This document shows positions 9,555 to 12,131 of a stretch of DNA of 42,448 nt, piece after piece. Location of the stretch: positions 1 through 42,448 of the IMG/VR virus record IMGVR_UViG_3300011466_000001. One strand, 5' to 3'. The DNA is from a virus. The translations under genes and the position numbers were made by a program. The notes below the pieces were generated by a model. That model had not been told where the DNA came from. It saw only the letters and a program-made list of their open reading frames with translations, and made no database searches. The first letter of the stretch is position 1; each line of letters opens with the position of its first letter.

Positions 9555-9767
9555 CTATAAATATCTATTTAATCTTTCCGCAATATGCGGGTCACTCTTC
9601 CAACCATGCCCAACATATATAAGCCTATGCCGATCGATATACTCGTCACTAAATTGCCCATAGCATTCAAGCAACGTGTGCTTTGGTTTCAACTCCGCTT
9701 GTCGAATATTCTTATGCCTTAGTATTCCTACTGATAGTTGGATGTAATAGTAATGCATATCAGTCAC
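9555..9767 (-). CDS. Hypothetical protein
   Basis: 70-aa ORF with an ATGA overlap with the upstream gene. Confidence 0.45.
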   Translation of the reverse strand: MTDMHYYYIQLSVGILRHKNIRQAELKPKHTLLECYGQFSDEYIDRHRLIYVGHGWKSDPHIAERLNRYL

Positions 9768-10999
9768 CCCAACTCATAGATTACTTTCAGCTTGTCTGCT
9801 GAATACTCAAAGGCCTGTGTGCTCTTATAGTTCATTGTGTAGCCATTCTCCGACTCATACTGATCGTTAGGTTTTATTGTTCCTAACTGCCGATGAATAA
9901 CTCCTTTAAGGTTTTGGGCTTCCATTGAGTGATAATGCCCTTGGTGAATTTCAAGCCAACTACTCTTGCTCCATACGTCTCGAAACTCGGTAGCGAATAG
10001 CATAGGATAATCGCCCTTCTTGCCGAAGTGTCCATGAGTGAGCATAATGCCTACATTGTCTAGCTGATATGCAATCCTTGGTAGGTTGTGTTTGTTTACC
10101 GTTACTTGTGGATAGAGTGTTTCTAAGTACATTAGGAACAAATACTCAAAGTCACTGTGATTACCACTGGCAAATTCAATCCGCACCTCTGAGCTTTTTC
10201 TTAAAGATTCATCGATCAGCGTAATGAAGAATGTTTTAGCCAACTCAATTGCTTCGACCATATCTACATCTTCAAGTTGAGTACCTTTGATCGTTTGGCT
10301 TGCCTTCATAGCGTTTGAGTGAAAGATATCTCCCAACACTTCTATAACGATTGTCTTATAGCCTTTATTTATGATTGCTAATACATCGGATAGATAGGTT
10401 TCAAACTTTCGTTCCGACAAAATAGGGAAATGCAAATCAGCCAACGGTATGACTAGATTGCACTTCCCTTTGATAATTGGTTGAATTGTAATCGGTTTAG
10501 TACTTTGCAGCAATTTAGTTGCCAACGCTTGAATGCTAACTGCTGCCCTTGGCTTAACAACTATCTTTGATTGATAAAGCTGTATAAGTCCATCTAATTG
10601 GTTGTTCTGTTCCCAAATGTTGTTAGTCGCTTGGACCAGTTCCCAATTTTCGGGATCATATCCGTGTGCTTGTAAAACATAATCAGGATTCTTTGACTGC
10701 TCTTCAGTCATACGCAACTTGATAAGATTTGTCTGAGTACCATCTGATTTGATTTCTGTAGATACTACATTCTTCTTAGTCTTATCAGTTTGCTTAACAC
10801 GCATATTCTTTTCGCTCGGTGGCAACTTCAACCTAGCACGTTTACTTCTAACGCTTGGCCATGAAAACTCTTTGCCGAACTCCTCTGACAGCATAGGCGC
10901 TATCTCTATATTTGTTAGTCCTTCATTTGCCAATTCCGACAATCGTTTGACATGCTGTTCCGTCCATTTAGTTATGTCTGCCACCTCGCTTTTCTGCAA
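9764..10999 (-). CDS. Calcineurin-like metallophosphoesterase with an N-terminal HTH-like domain
   Basis: Ordered motifs DLH, GDIFH, GNHS, THGH and GHYH. The N-terminal ~60 aa look like a helix-turn-helix. Start is ambiguous: TTG at 10999 lies inside the upstream terminator U-tract, and GTG at 10984 is the alternative. Confidence 0.7.
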   Translation of the reverse strand: MQKSEVADITKWTEQHVKRLSELANEGLTNIEIAPMLSEEFGKEFSWPSVRSKRARLKLPPSEKNMRVKQTDKTKKNVVSTEIKSDGTQTNLIKLRMTEEQSKNPDYVLQAHGYDPENWELVQATNNIWEQNNQLDGLIQLYQSKIVVKPRAAVSIQALATKLLQSTKPITIQPIIKGKCNLVIPLADLHFPILSERKFETYLSDVLAIINKGYKTIVIEVLGDIFHSNAMKASQTIKGTQLEDVDMVEAIELAKTFFITLIDESLRKSSEVRIEFASGNHSDFEYLFLMYLETLYPQVTVNKHNLPRIAYQLDNVGIMLTHGHFGKKGDYPMLFATEFRDVWSKSSWLEIHQGHYHSMEAQNLKGVIHRQLGTIKPNDQYESENGYTMNYKSTQAFEYSADKLKVIYELG

Positions 11000-11026
11000 A
11001 ATAAAAAGCCACTCGTTATGAGTGAC
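10998..11026 (-). terminator. Intrinsic terminator closing the structured RNA region
   Basis: Minus strand: GUCACUC-auaac-GAGUGGC (7 bp, one G-U) followed by UUUUUAUUUUG. Confidence 0.65.
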
Positions 11027-11110
11027 TTGGATATGTACGTCCCCGCTTGGGCCACATTACTAAGAGGTGTGCGAGGTTTTACCAGTTTTTGGGATTACTG
11101 TGAACCCTAT

Positions 11111-11183
11111 TGGCGTGACCGGACTCGAACCGGTGCATTCTTGGGTATCGACCCCAACTGCTCTACCTCTGAGCTACACACCA
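11111..11183 (-). tRNA. Near-canonical tRNA-like gene (module C)
   Basis: Minus strand: acceptor UGGUGUG/CACGCCA, D arm GCUC-agaggua-GAGC, anticodon stem UUGGG/CCCAA with loop GUCGAUA, T arm ACCGG-UUCGAGU-CCGGU. There are 2 nt between the D and anticodon stems, and a 6-nt variable region. Confidence 0.45.
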
Positions 11184-11262
11184 ACTTGAGGGAGCTACCC
11201 TCTGCATGCATTGGGCAGGATGCGTATCACACTAGCTTTGTGCGAACAAATATCCTACCTAT

Positions 11263-11394
11263 GTCACTGGAGTGGCACCGCCCCACTCACGAACTGGTTC
11301 TTAAAACATTAGGAGCGAGAGTTTCAACACAGGTAGCTAATCTGATTATGCCAGTTCTATCTCGCCGTGCGTCTTCTACTTCCGCCACAGTGAC
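11263..11394 (-). ncRNA. tRNA-like module B (132 nt)
   Basis: Acceptor GUCACUG/CAGUGAC. Class-II (Leu-like) D arm UGGCGGAAGUAGAAGACGC. A 7-bp arm GGCGAGA/UCUCGCU encloses 39 nt. The T-like arm GAGUGG-ggcggug-CCACUC has a 6-bp stem and a non-canonical loop. Confidence 0.4.
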
Positions 11395-11501
11395 CGAAGC
11401 TTGGTGGTGTACAGATAGCACACTTACTACATTGCCGTATGTAGCACCGTATAGCTTCTTCACGATCTTTTTCGGTGATCGTAACCATCATAGGCATTTA
11501 A

Positions 11502-11605
11502 GTCACTGGCAAGGAATCGAACCTTGCATGTTGAGTTTCACTCCTTAGCAAGTGCACTTGCCTTCCCAACTAGGACTTAGCGTTTACCCTTTCCGCCACA
11601 GTGAC
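11502..11605 (-). ncRNA. tRNA-like module A (104 nt)
   Basis: Same acceptor GUCACUG/CAGUGAC. D arm GCG-gaaaggguaaa-CGC. T arm GCAAGG-UUCGAUU-CCUUGC has a canonical T loop but a 6-bp stem. The anticodon region is replaced by an irregular arm containing the palindrome GCAAGUGCACUUGC. Confidence 0.45.
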
Positions 11606-11717
11606 TATCGCCCACAGAATAATTTTTACGTATCAAAAGGAGGTTGAATGCCGTTGTGCTTGTGGGCGATATCTTACTAATACCATTATAATTCATTATT
11701 TCAATGGTTGCTGTTGC

Positions 11718-12131
11718 TTAATTGTTGCTTTTAGCCTTGATAACATAGTCTTTTTTGAATTGAACTTTTTTCAAAATGGCTGAATGATGTTTTCGGATAT
11801 ACTGGTACGTGTAACCAAGTTCATCTGCAATTTCTTGTAGGGTCAGCCCTTCAACATATTTCATACGCAATATGTGTTGCTCAATTCCTTTGAAAGAGTA
11901 AATAACCTTTCTCAGATCAAAGCGGTAATTCATTTGCACTGCCAGCTCATACTCCAAGTTATCTATAATATCCTCTAATTTACTAGCCTTCGATTCTTTT
12001 ACCAAAGAATATCTTCCCAAGTCATTGGGGTTCTTCCATCTATCAAGTTCTTCTTTGTATGTTTCAAGTTCCCAATCAAGCAAAGCAATTTTTTGTTCCC
12101 ACTCTTGATACTTACTCAGCCATTCGTACAA
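11718..12131 (-). CDS. Late-gene transcriptional activator (ArpU/RinA-like, sigma-70 region-4-type HTH)
   Basis: 137 aa. The C-terminal block ILRMKYVEGLTLQEIADELGYTYQYIRKHHSAILKK is sigma region-4-like. It sits upstream of the packaging genes. TTG start preceded by SD GAGGAGGG. Confidence 0.6.
   Translation of the reverse strand: MYEWLSKYQEWEQKIALLDWELETYKEELDRWKNPNDLGRYSLVKESKASKLEDIIDNLEYELAVQMNYRFDLRKVIYSFKGIEQHILRMKYVEGLTLQEIADELGYTYQYIRKHHSAILKKVQFKKDYVIKAKSNN

Follow-up and report, generated by a model that had tools for sequence, protein, structure and literature searches.

The window analysed here is the complete 42,448-nucleotide stretch of viral DNA of IMG/VR record IMGVR_UViG_3300011466_000001. 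Two tRNA-like modules, A and B, lie on its minus strand between a gene for a sigma-70-region-4 regulator and the packaging genes, and are followed by an odd tRNA and a terminator. The features of this block, with the two modules delimited by reading of the sequence, are listed below in the order of transcription.

12131 to 11718, minus strand: upstream gene of 137 amino acids, Pfam Sigma70_r4 (E 2e-8), phage late-regulator type
11671 to 11606, minus strand: upstream leader with a 10-bp inverted repeat, AUCGCCCACA ... UGUGGGCGAU
11605 to 11502, minus strand: module A, 104 nt, type-A shell
11501 to 11395, minus strand: linker between the type-A and type-B modules, 107 nt, conserved, non-coding
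11394 to 11263, minus strand: module B, 132 nt, type-B shell
11184 to 11109, minus strand: class-I tRNA with anticodon loop GUCGAUA (CGA), called by ARAGORN and scoring 49 bits with Rfam
11028 to 11006, minus strand: intrinsic-terminator-like hairpin and U run, closing the non-coding RNA block

The inverted repeat of the leader stops one base (A, 11606) short of module A. The tRNA at 11109..11184 is probably in one transcription unit with the modules. A Cys-rich open reading frame of 46 codons (11497-11357), which runs from within the linker into the first part of module B, was rejected as a gene on the basis of a frameshift and stop codons in the related loci L005 and L089. The modules themselves are divided as follows.

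Module A, acceptor 5' strand: 11605-11599
Module A, U8 and G9: 11598-11597
Module A, D arm: 11596-11580
Module A, variable core (52 nt): 11579-11528
Module A, T arm with loop UUCGAUU: 11527-11509
Module A, acceptor 3' strand: 11508-11502
Module A, discriminator U: 11501
Module B, acceptor 5' strand: 11394-11388
Module B, D arm without a G18 G19 doublet: 11385-11369
Module B, variable core (80 nt): 11368-11289
Module B, T arm with loop GGCGGUG: 11288-11270
Module B, acceptor 3' strand: 11269-11263
Module B, discriminator A: 11262

Both modules begin with the same 15-mer, GUCACUGUGGCGGAA (minus strand, 11605-11591 in A and 11394-11380 in B). With up to two mismatches allowed, these are its only two matches in the window, against 0.04 expected from shuffles, and none of 100 shuffles reached two matches. 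Both modules end with CAGUGAC, and the 7-bp acceptor stems are therefore identical, with a C3-G70 pair and no G3-U70. The D arm is GCG-GAAAGGGUAAA-CGC in module A and GCG-GAAGUAGAAGA-CGC in module B. The T arms, GCAAGG-UUCGAUU-CCUUGC and GAGUGG-GGCGGUG-CCACUC respectively, each have a 6-bp stem directly adjoining the acceptor stem, giving a 7 + 6 = 13-bp stack as opposed to the canonical 7 + 5 = 12. Module A has the elbow nucleotides G18 G19 and U54 U55 C56...A58 (GAAAGGGUAAA; UUCGAUU). The canonical elbow nucleotides are lacking in module B (GAAGUAGAAGA; GGCGGUG), where G19-C56 could persist. At the sequence level, module A has the tertiary core of the leucyl-tRNA synthetase (LeuRS) identity set together with U73, and module B has A73 but lacks G18 and U55. 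The element UGAAACUC occurs in both cores, and the minimum free energy (MFE) z-score of module A is -2.47. Module A recurs as an identical 104-nt sequence in two other loci (L013 and L091). Module B has four close variants (L238 and L241-L243); their core substitutions map to the loop that separates the two helices proposed below, and one more difference is found in the T loop.

An earlier note on this DNA had described A and B as paralogous tRNA-like modules, and the common 15-mer, acceptor stem, D arm and 6-bp T stem bear this out. Its account of the CAGUGAC ends, of a T loop that is canonical in A and not in B, of the 13-bp stack and of UGAAACUC in both modules also agrees with the minus strand. 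It had called the D arm of module B Leu-like, which is correct, and that of module A Tyr/Ser-like, which is not, since by the family consensus both are tRNA-Leu-like.

The anticodon arm is absent from both modules. ARAGORN, run on the window, called only the tRNA at 11109-11184 and no tmRNA, leaving A and B uncalled, and Rfam gave no match over A and B at the gathering score or even at E<=10. A 5-bp anticodon stem with a 7-nt loop (U33, purine 37) starting one base past the D stem is found in neither. In relatives, the Rfam tRNA model aligns the acceptor, D and T arms at 31-41 bits and skips all 17 anticodon-arm positions, opposite 33-68 nt. Anticodon-like hairpins occur in 9 of 99 cores, compared with 5.7 +/- 2.3 in shuffles; they are not enriched and present no consistent anticodon, and no conserved half-stems were found at the core edges. 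A hidden ordinary tRNA was rejected on the negative results of ARAGORN in default mode, of Rfam at both thresholds and of this systematic hairpin search. An intron-containing tRNA was rejected because ARAGORN with the -i option yields discordant anticodons and intron sites. The suggestion that the modules are undecodable therefore stands, and neither ARAGORN, with its tmRNA search included, nor Rfam folded them as ordinary class-II tRNAs. Because the outer shell of a tRNA-Leu is kept and its decoding arm is swapped for an insert, A and B are almost certainly unable to read codons.

Known RNA families (riboswitches, C4-type antisense RNAs, Y RNA, tmRNA, ribozymes, ROOL, and GOLLD) were rejected as the source of the cores or of the intergenic block. 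The scan covered the window and 20 related loci, and its sole match was that of the tRNA model to the shell. Specifically, the cores had no match to an Rfam aptamer or ribozyme, the self-cleaving ribozymes searched (HDV-like/theta, pistol, and twister) had no Rfam match in the window at E<=10 or in the 20 relatives at E<=1, and ROOL (RF03087) and GOLLD had no Rfam match in the window.

The shell of modules A and B was found in 131 Enterococcus phage or prophage loci, which represent 78 distinct sequences and 30 unrelated core families; the A core and the B core are two of these families. This shell consists of the 7-bp acceptor stem, UG, a GCG-GAA...A-CGC D arm, N-U, the T arm and the complementary 3' strand. 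Exact shells came from 96 + 25 viral loci and from 11 contigs of 10 Enterococcus species. There are two shell types, and the cores are exchanged between them: one core is found on different shells, and one shell with different cores. The 78 distinct modules share the shells of A and B exactly or nearly so, and A and B each have a lineage-specific core of the exchangeable 45-110-nt kind between the D and T stems. Pairing of the T stem is kept across GCAAGG/CCUUGC, GCAAUG/CAUUGC, and GAGUGG/CCACUC; the search was designed so that the acceptor stem of this subfamily could not vary. As discriminator, its modules have U in 49 cases, A in 31, and G in 4. The earlier note had allowed that the modules might be absent or degraded in all relatives; they are neither, being conserved in more than 130 loci with a near-identical shell amid mosaic surrounding sequence. 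There is good support for A and B as genuine members of a large phage family in which the tRNA-Leu shell stays constant and the core is hypervariable.

This family of phage genes is apparently undescribed. Literature searches, including full-text searches of about 8 million papers with the exact 15-mer and with descriptors, returned nothing relevant to these RNAs, and we found no curated family (none in Rfam) or paper that describes them. The modules are unannotated in phage CCS1, the one deposited genome inspected. A BLAST search of annotated phages with a shell-only query gave no match because each half of the shell is too short. The only annotated phage record close to the window's own block was phiEG37K, which does not contain the modules.

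A scan specifying the D arm and T loop alone retrieved at least 120 loci from very diverse viral contigs, revealing a superfamily with the D arm and T arm of tRNA-Leu, cores of 45-110 nt, and no anticodon arm. A perfect 7-bp acceptor stem in the tRNA register was present in 69 of 85 distinct matches, in 42 different sequences, where chance would supply one in ~0.2% of matches. The acceptor and T stems covary, with 12/15 and 11/16 pairs changed on both sides, in alignments that were pre-filtered for perfect stems, so that only the 69/85 count is unbiased. Pairing falls to 33-47% in slid controls. All members of the 7/6 class share the extra G-C pair, and the 7/5 relatives have the canonical 12-bp acceptor/T stack. 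In the superfamily consensus U8, A14, G18, G19, and U48 are invariant and the T loop is UUCRANU. Among 131 modules, 88 carry a discriminator A. The family consensus UGGCGGAAUUGGUAGACGC is the D arm of Escherichia coli tRNA-Leu at 19 of 19 positions. At the sequence level, the superfamily consensus contains every element of the bacterial tRNA-Leu identity set.

The cores are structured and under selection. Their mean MFE z-score is -0.73 (p = 1e-8), and whole helices are swapped between related cores (GGUCAA/UUGACC versus GGCUGA/UCAGUC, and GAGCUUU/AAAGCUC versus GUUGUAAU/AUUACAGC). In core B the helix GCGAGA/UCUCGC crosses GAACUGG/CCAGUUC, an arrangement equalled in 0 of 60 shuffles. In core A, UCCU/AGGA crosses GUUGGG/CUCAAC and can be drawn as pseudoknot-like; the best pseudoknot scanned for core A combines GUUGGG/CUCAAC with a different S1 and is not significant (p about 0.1). 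The long irregular arm that, in the earlier note, takes the place of the anticodon arm can be drawn in this way as a pseudoknot-like domain. A crude search restricted to perfect helices found that 28% of cores beat 95% of shuffles for a pseudoknot and 21% for a terminal helix. An H-type pseudoknot is accordingly enriched but not universal across cores and can be taken as a tendency only; a pseudoknot architecture of the cores is moderately supported. No 8-mer is common to more than 3 of the 30 core families, and UGAAACUC was rejected as a family motif, with other core families lacking it. The longest complementarity between the cores and the 42-kb window is 12 nt, which is at chance level, and RNAduplex comparisons with the leader, linkers, tRNA, and downstream ribosome-binding-site region were all non-significant. 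Antisense regulation in cis or within the phage was therefore rejected.

A Sigma70_r4 gene precedes the modules by 110-250 nt in most related loci. The leader at 11606..11671 belongs to a set of about five flank types that recur upstream of modules, and it precedes many different ones. In about 10 loci with tandem A-then-B pairs the two modules are joined by the same linker, 107-110 nt long. tRNAs adjoin the modules in 33 of 115 diverse loci. There are also loci where a tRNA begins 3-5 nt past the module. The tRNAs adjoining modules in this phage group are themselves unusual. In lytic Enterococcus phages of the genus Schiekvirus a module lies 14 nt downstream of ROOL inside a tRNA island; ROOL adjoins modules only in L026, L052, L087, and L240. 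Lytic phages of 150 kb also have modules in their tRNA islands, at a great distance from packaging sites. The proposal that the modules are structural domains of an ornate RNA is unsupported in the window, which has no ROOL or GOLLD match, but the Schiekvirus arrangement does place a module next to such an RNA. Clustering of 1720 neighbouring open reading frames gave no conserved protein neighbour, the best cluster being present in 23 of the 115 loci, and a dedicated protein partner was rejected.

Comparison with known RNAs places the modules closest in form to several partial relatives. They resemble class-II tRNA-Leu in the 7-bp acceptor stem, U8, 3-bp D stem, U48, UUCRANU T arm, frequent A73, and location in tRNA islands, and the D loop of the superfamily consensus, GAAUUGGUAGA, is identical to that of E. 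coli tRNA-Leu. However, they have no anticodon arm and carry 45-110 nt of unrelated, lineage-specific sequence between the D and T stems. The subfamily in the window differs further in its 6-bp T stem (13-bp stack), its mostly U73 discriminator, and the altered D and T loops of the type-B shell. The acceptor stems of the modules also differ from those of the genuine tRNA-Leu genes of the same phages. tRNA-Sec likewise stacks its acceptor and T stems coaxially into a 13-bp helix and has an enlarged extra region. Nevertheless, bacterial tRNA-Sec has an 8/5 split, a 6-bp D stem, and a UCA anticodon arm, whereas A and B are split 7/6, have a D stem of 3 bp, and lack an anticodon arm, and selenoprotein machinery was not found near them. 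tmRNA, the Y RNA YrlA, and the tRNA-like structures of plant viruses combine partial tRNA mimicry (acceptor, T arm, elbow) with non-tRNA structure, perhaps including pseudoknots. In contrast to these, the modules gave no ARAGORN match to tmRNA and no Rfam match to tmRNA, Y RNA, or a plant-virus structure in the window, and they have no tag open reading frame and no G3-U70 pair of the tRNA-Ala-like kind. In YrlA the tRNA-like module is permuted and the 5' and 3' ends make up a Ro-binding stem, whereas the 5' and 3' ends of A and B are the acceptor stem itself, and the modules are free-standing genes of DNA phages.

The species 1 and 2 RNAs of phage T4 (rnaC and rnaD) are, like the modules, small stable RNAs (139 and 119 nt) from a phage tRNA cluster, and the 3' end of rnaC has a canonical T arm, CCGGG-UUCGAAU-CCCGG, followed by an acceptor-like 3' strand. 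They differ from the modules in having no sequence similarity to them (judged by reading only), no Leu-type D arm, imperfect acceptor pairing in rnaC, and no known hypervariable family. The T4 record calls both simply small stable RNAs and gives no function for them, and none is known to have been established.

We consider, with moderate confidence, that A and B are genes for non-decoding, tRNA-Leu-derived small RNAs that are processed as tRNAs and carry a variable structured domain. The block would be co-transcribed from the upstream regulator gene through the modules and the downstream tRNA to the terminator at about 11010, and the modules would be released in the manner of tRNAs, by RNase P at the 5' end and RNase Z at the 3' end, and served by the CCA-adding enzyme. 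The parts kept in the shell (7-bp acceptor stem, U8, 3-bp D stem with Leu-type loop, U48, and T arm) are those of a class-II tRNA-Leu that the tRNA machinery reads, and the 45-110-nt lineage-specific core, often pseudoknot-like, takes the place of the anticodon and variable arms. The shell may confer exact processing and nuclease resistance, and either the variable core, or the shell as a tRNA mimic, may exert a trans effect on a host factor; the shell may in addition define the ends of adjacent RNAs as a side effect. The modules thus probably exploit the tRNA machinery of the cell for another purpose. Their expression, processing, and any trans-acting function, be it as effector carrier, decoy, or processing signal, are predicted from sequence.

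There is an engineered counterpart in the 'tRNA scaffold' of Ponchon and Dardel, in which the acceptor, D, and T arms are kept, a structured insert replaces the anticodon stem-loop, and the product is processed and protected in bacteria (PMC3753655). That scaffold is man-made, is based on tRNA-Lys3 or tRNA-Met, and has a hairpin at the insertion point (PMC3753655), whereas the modules are natural and Leu-derived and have had the variable arm replaced as well. A pure scaffold role leaves unexplained both the tRNA-Leu specificity of the shell and the 13-bp acceptor/T stack of the Enterococcus subfamily. A bolder version, which we offer tentatively, is a natural 'tRNA-scaffold display', run by phages of many lineages, in which the shell hijacks RNase P, RNase Z, the CCA-adding enzyme, and possibly LeuRS, and the cores are swappable, fast-evolving, aptamer-like effector cassettes. 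If so, the cassettes would act against host proteins or immune signals, the modules would rank with the largest classes of phage non-coding RNA so far unrecognised, and in tRNA islands they would be functional partners of ROOL-type RNAs.

Other functions for a non-decoding tRNA-like RNA can be weighed against these data. The modules could be leucine-accepting tRNA mimics, their shell being kept because LeuRS charges it; once charged they would sequester LeuRS or EF-Tu or donate leucine non-ribosomally, and the 13-bp stack would exclude them from the ribosome. Bacterial LeuRS needs A73 together with U8-A14, A15-U48, G18-U55, and G19-C56, the anticodon arm is dispensable, and deletion of the whole arm lowers affinity merely 2.5-fold (PMC2377443). 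These elements are exactly the ones kept in the superfamily consensus, and the E. coli-type D arm and the discriminator A of 88 of 131 modules point the same way. Nevertheless, we regard this role as unlikely. An A73U change cuts leucylation 45-fold in Aquifex aeolicus (PMC2377443), and U outnumbers A among the Enterococcus discriminators and is present in module A. Neither the G18 G19 doublet nor the U54 U55 C56 loop is present in module B. Moreover, no gene for an aminoacyl-tRNA-using enzyme is linked, and leucine acceptance would not explain the conservation of elaborate cores. The modules could also be abundant decoys, tRNA-shaped but lacking an anticodon, that soak up tRNA-directed nucleases or acceptor-end modifiers, or that are invisible to anticodon nucleases, with PrrC/RloC-like, PARIS, retron-Septu, CapRel, and MenT types as candidate targets. 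For a decoy the shell alone would suffice, yet the cores are long, structured, and conserved within lineages, and no defence or anti-defence gene is consistently linked. Many defence systems act by cleaving or modifying tRNAs, and phages respond with tRNA variants of their own (bioRxiv 10.64898/2026.07.10.737580); the modules occupy the genomic niches of phage tRNAs, and the unusual character of the adjoining tRNAs would also suit such a role. On balance we judge decoys, against these targets or others of the kind, to be quite improbable.

It is very unlikely that the modules are pure processing punctuation, discarded after their fold has recruited RNase P and RNase Z to form the ends of an mRNA, ROOL, element X, or tRNAs. 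RNase P requires just the acceptor and T arm, leaving the D arm, U8, U48, and structured core unexplained; an ordinary tRNA could serve equally; and the tandem A-B pairs with their conserved linker have nothing obvious to release. Punctuation would accord with the embedding of modules among other non-coding elements and tRNAs and with the module that begins 14 nt past the 3' end of ROOL. The latter recalls MALAT1, from whose 3' end the tRNA-like mascRNA is processed (bioRxiv 10.64898/2026.01.19.700226). Like mascRNA, the Schiekvirus module is a tRNA-like, non-decoding fold directly past a large non-coding RNA, and in a similar role it would direct RNase P cleavage. However, mascRNA is eukaryotic, 58 nt long, and without a large core, and the window has no large RNA upstream of the modules. 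A position just upstream of packaging genes, where pac or cos sites are frequent, together with the mosaic flanks and the constant acceptor stem of the Enterococcus subfamily, might instead suggest a DNA site (pac, cos, or att) that resembles a tRNA, a recombination scar, or a decaying tRNA-Leu pseudogene. This reading is disfavoured, and in our view highly improbable, given the compensatory changes that preserve stems over 42 acceptor variants, the near-identity of the shell amid mosaic neighbours, and the modules in tRNA islands distant from packaging sites. Disfavoured too, and scarcely credible, is a decoding tRNA with an intron or an unconventional anticodon arm missed by the tools. With introns allowed, ARAGORN can be made to fit a tRNA to most relatives; a hairpin with loop CUGGUAA is present in one core type; and a gene with an AGUCAGG shell in L139 has a near-normal Leu(CAA) arm. 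However, the forced calls comprise about 20 anticodons at arbitrary intron positions although the shells are all Leu-type, anticodon-like hairpins are no commoner than in shuffles, and the cores lack conserved flanking half-stems. We know of no route by which bacteria could splice 50-100-nt tRNA inserts of unrelated sequence.

Both tRNA mimicry and phage tRNA genes are well known; what is apparently undescribed is a widespread phage gene family in which a tRNA-Leu shell is kept and dozens of unrelated structured cores are swapped. If the modules are expressed, phages would have evolved the solution that RNA engineers themselves use for stable RNAs in bacteria. The modules would then be fresh candidates for anti-defence or host-takeover RNAs, would give a handle on the unexplained link between ROOL/GOLLD and tRNA islands, and would provide natural test cases for RNase P, RNase Z, the CCA-adding enzyme, LeuRS, and EF-Tu, including the 7/6 13-bp stack. 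There is also a consequence for annotation, as intron-tolerant tRNA finders miscall these genes, making of them spurious tRNAs with random anticodons.

Modules A and B both open with the 15-mer GUCACUGUGGCGGAA and close with CAGUGAC on the minus strand, as the earlier note had read them; the D arms, the T arms, whose 6-bp stems abut the acceptor stem, and the element UGAAACUC common to both modules also agreed with its description. Even with 2 mismatches allowed, the 15-mer occurred at only two sites in the whole window, the starts of A and B (0.04 matches expected by shuffling; two matches in 0 of 100 shuffles). The modules lie within a non-coding block of ~720 nt with the following order on the minus strand.

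5' of the modules, minus strand: regulator gene, an ORF of 137 aa in which Pfam finds a sigma-70 region 4 domain (E 2e-8)
11606-11671, minus strand: leader before module A, with the 10-bp inverted repeat AUCGCCCACA ... UGUGGGCGAU
11605..11502, minus strand: module A, 104 nt, read from the sequence; followed by a 107-nt linker
11394..11263, minus strand: module B, 132 nt, read from the sequence; followed by a 78-nt spacer
11109-11184, minus strand: tRNA of class-I shape, anticodon loop GUCGAUA (CGA)
11028-11006, minus strand: terminator-like hairpin, end of the block
9764-10999, minus strand: 411-aa ORF 3' of the RNA block, followed by the terminase small and large subunits

ARAGORN with tmRNA search included called one gene in the window, the tRNA at 11109-11184, leaving A and B uncalled, in line with the earlier view of them as non-decodable; no tmRNA was found in the whole window. 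The same tRNA was the sole Rfam match in the window at the gathering score, with none for A or B, and a permissive scan of 10700-12000 (E ≤ 10) gave no match over either module.

Viral contigs were scanned for the 15-mer followed, after a gap, by CAGTGAC; this gave 96 loci, and a rescan with longer gaps added 25. Applied to one genome per prokaryotic species, the pattern matched 11 contigs from 10 Enterococcus species; two further matches look like chance (rough expectation ~2 for a pattern of this size). The pooled Enterococcus family comprises 131 loci and 78 distinct modules of 98 to 161 nt, with two types of shell (acceptor stem, D arm and T arm). The type-A shell, that of module A, has GG in the D loop and the T arm GCAAGG-U[UG]C[GA]A[AU]U-CCUUGC. 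The type-B shell, that of module B, has the D loop GAAGUAGAAGA and the T arm GAGUGG-GGCAGUR-CCACUC or GUGUGG-UGCGAUU-CCACUC. Type B alters the D and T loops jointly, from G18 G19/U54 U55 C56...A58 to A18 G19/G54 G55 C56...G58 (in the window, 11385-11369 for D and 11288-11270 for T), and the joint change suggests an alternative elbow that co-evolved, more than decay.

The cores between the D and T stems form 30 families, among which no similarity was detected; any given hexamer occurs in at most 6 of the families. Cores and shells swap as modules: cores of one family (in modules of 127-135 nt) sit on three variants of the shell, and every shell occurs with many cores. Exact module A occupies the first position in L091 and the second, after the conserved linker, in L013 (L-numbers denote related loci or contigs gathered in the searches). 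Tandem pairs, present at ~10 loci, are always type A followed by type B, 107-110 nt apart. The 5' and 3' flanks are of few recurring types in mosaic combination, and a 137-139-aa ORF resembling the window regulator is found 110-250 nt 5' of the module at most loci. Module B has four close variants, with core substitutions in the loop between two proposed helices and one more difference in the T loop; no sequence variant of module A was present in the collected data.

A scan using only a Leu-type D arm and T loop, 46-76 nt apart (beyond normal tRNA-Leu spacing), found at least 120 loci from many unrelated metagenomes. Among the matches listed, 69 of 85 distinct ones had a perfect 7-bp acceptor stem in the exact tRNA register, with 42 different acceptor sequences. 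Since the pattern placed no demand on acceptor pairing, for which chance is ~0.2% per match, this is unbiased evidence of selection for an RNA helix. In shell-only alignments both sides had changed in 12 of 15 pairs among modules with 7-bp acceptor and 5-bp T stems (7/5 class; 100% of cells paired, slid partners 33-44%) and in 11 of 16 pairs in the 7/6 class of the window modules (99.7% paired, slid partners 32-47%); the alignments were filtered for perfect stems, so the percentage paired is partly built in and the diversity of pair types alone is informative. Neither class varies at U8, G10, A14, G19, A21 or U48; G18 never varies in the 7/5 class and is conserved to at least 90% when the classes are aligned together. 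A 19-nt D-arm segment from E. coli tRNA-Leu appears without change within the 7/5 consensus GUGGCGGAAUUGGUAGACGC. The 7/6 geometry recurs on at least 7 other acceptor sequences, with the extra G-C pair invariant throughout. Five unrelated metagenomic phage contigs (L105, L107, L116, L139 and L162) carry an AGUCAGG.../...CCUGACU shell (A1-U72) with five different cores. This shell is not that of the genuine tRNA-Leu genes on those contigs, indicating that the modules are a separate lineage and not recent copies of the resident tRNA-Leu. L139 has three genes with this shell, one with a near-normal Leu(CAA) arm.

Modules A and B and their relatives have no anticodon arm. The Rfam tRNA model scored 31-41 bits on 7/5 relatives, matching the acceptor, D and T arms and skipping all 17 anticodon-arm positions against 33-68 nt of module. 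ARAGORN called 6 of 115 diverse loci in default mode; its intron mode forced most of the 115 into tRNAs, with ~20 anticodons and arbitrary intron positions. Anticodon-like hairpins (5-bp stem, 7-nt loop, U at loop position 2, purine at 6) numbered 9 in 99 non-redundant cores versus 5.7 ± 2.3 in shuffled ones, with no recurring anticodon. The skipped arm, the shuffle-level hairpin count and the inconsistent intron-mode calls disfavor a cryptic tRNA. The random-anticodon "intron-containing tRNAs" that intron mode reports on L098-L212 are a likely source of spurious phage annotations.

On average, the cores fold more stably than their dinucleotide-shuffled versions (mean z = -0.73, p = 1e-8, n = 99). 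Two families keep a helix through a full swap: GGUCAA/UUGACC versus GGCUGA/UCAGUC in the 108-nt family, and GAGCUUU/AAAGCUC versus GUUGUAAU/AUUACAGC in the ACGAYGAGUAC family. In single-sequence folding the nested fold was modestly significant for module A (z = -2.47) and not significant for module B (z = +0.42). Many cores can be drawn as a putative H-type pseudoknot, in which helix 1 begins a few bases past the D stem and the 3' strand of helix 2 stops ~2 nt short of the T stem, at the position of the class-II variable arm; the invariant U48 comes after the drawn helix 2. Module B suits this drawing well (GCGAGA/UCUCGC crossing GAACUGG/CCAGUUC, equalled by 0 of 60 shuffles), and the same drawing of module A (UCCU/AGGA crossing GUUGGG/CUCAAC, with the inserted hairpin GGCAAGUGCACUUGCU) was not significant. 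A crude perfect-helix search over all cores gave p ≤ 0.05 in 28% for the pseudoknot and 21% for a terminal helix; the pseudoknot is thus enriched yet far from universal, a tendency and not a defining feature.

A simple scan of the minus strand from the regulator gene to the terminator found no sigma-70-like promoter, so co-transcription of the RNA block with the regulator gene is the simplest reading. The conserved part of the modules comprises the features read by the tRNA maturation and recognition machinery, and the deleted part is the decoding part. The laboratory "tRNA scaffold" shares this exchange of the decoding arm for an insert: the anticodon stem-loop is replaced, the acceptor, T and D arms stay, and a scaffold chimera in E. 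coli was correctly processed and protected from nucleases (PMC3753655). On the basis of the retained shell, the missing decoding part and this precedent, we propose tRNA-like processing of A and B. RNase P and RNase Z would excise them from the transcript, CCA would be added, and they would accumulate as stable L-shaped RNAs whose variable domain or tRNA-like shell might then act on host factors. Our confidence is high in the identity of the modules as tRNA-Leu-like, non-decoding elements and low in their function.

The Leu identity of the shell raises a second possibility, leucylation: bacterial LeuRS dispenses with the anticodon arm and reads A73 and the tertiary core (PMC2377443), and the superfamily consensus keeps every element so read. 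However, 58% of window-subfamily modules have U as the discriminator, module A itself has U73, and module B lacks both G18 and the T-loop UUC, making leucylation doubtful in the window subfamily. A decoy role is possible, as is a role purely as processing punctuation. Pairing, covariation and the family evidence disfavor reading the modules as pseudogenes or DNA sites. A coding reading is also disfavored: the 46-codon Cys-rich ORF that reaches from the linker into the start of B is interrupted by a frameshift and stops in the L005 and L089 homologues of the linker, and was rejected as a gene.

The nearest natural parallel is a pair of phage T4 RNAs, species 1 and species 2 (rnaC and rnaD; L213, 1909-2172). 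T4 rnaC (species 1) is encoded within the tRNA cluster and has at its end a canonical T arm followed by an acceptor-like strand, conceptually like the modules; the T4 record labels the two as no more than small stable RNAs and gives no function. The modules share one aspect each with mascRNA, the tmRNA and YrlA tRNA-like domains, viral TLS and tRNA-Sec, and fail the defining tests of all five. We class them with the non-decoding tRNA mimics, as a tRNA-Leu shell carrying hypervariable cores. No Rfam family of their own was found, nor any annotation of a module in the one deposited genome inspected (CCS1), nor a description of such a shell in a literature search that misses most subscription journals, so that an earlier description is possible.

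For both cores, complementarity did not exceed chance, whether to other parts of the window, to the leader and linkers, to the tRNA or to the ribosome-binding region downstream. Rfam gave no aptamer or ribozyme match in the window block or in 20 related loci, and no neighboring protein family was consistent across the 115 diverse loci (the best one in 23). A same-strand tRNA lay within 300 nt at 33 of the 115, and at some Enterococcus loci a tRNA starts 3-5 nt past the module. ROOL and GOLLD RNAs occur near tRNA islands (PMC12286853, PMC5737381). A ROOL RNA ends 14 nt 5' of a type-B module in L026 (ROOL 1140-1726, Rfam 265 bits; module 1740-1851), L052, L087 and L240, which suggests that the module could set the ROOL 3' end via RNase P. 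This arrangement is that of lytic 150-kb Enterococcus Schiekvirus phages (EFP01, CCS1, phiSHEF16; 68 annotated records). In CCS1 (L250, ON113170), the record inspected in detail, ROOL and module (~1603-2313) lie unannotated inside a tRNA island, with a promoter-like TTTACA-17-TATATT, read by eye, 5' of ROOL.

The leader repeat of the window encloses AACCUCCUUUU, which resembles the 16S rRNA 3' end and not a Shine-Dalgarno sequence; the same leader stands 5' of many different modules at other loci. The tRNA at 11109-11184 is unusual in its own right: it is "Ser" by its CGA yet lacks a long variable arm; it has G32 and U37, and if an eighth acceptor pair, U(-1)-A73, forms, its stack too would reach 13 bp. 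In relatives (L035, ~686-763; L083, ~584-661; L065, L093, L032) its slot is occupied variously by a "tRNA-Stop(UUA)" that has G33, a tRNA whose anticodon loop is 6 nt long, and a class-II Ser(CGA). The slot tRNAs of the window and relatives all begin UUG... and finish ...CAAU. The 411-aa ORF has a weak GcrA-like N-terminal match (E 0.0045) and, by eye, metallophosphoesterase-like motifs (DLHFP, GDIFH, GNHS, THGH, GHYH); its phiEG37K annotation is "phage protein (ACLAME 456)" and no more.

A conserved element of ~85 nt, "X" (AGCAACY GAGGGUUGGAAAUGGGCGCUCAAAGUACACGAGCAAGGCGAGGUCGAUAGUAAUCGAUGGAAUCGGUGUA GGUUGCU, with a 7-bp closing stem), lies directly 3' of modules in L014, L016, L022, L030, L043, L051 and others, and is also present in L250 (~2460-2545). 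It follows modules in most of 28 matching loci, a count that includes at least one chance match (L003, coding-like sequence), and occurs in temperate and lytic Enterococcus phages. Among the matches listed it has no ORF and no Rfam match, and it is a candidate for another non-coding RNA cassette. In L094, an Enterococcus phage locus, the stretch 32-345 holds an Rfam match to rli28 (99 bits) together with matches to toxin-antitoxin RNAs of RatA/BsrG type, ~1.1 kb 5' of a module.
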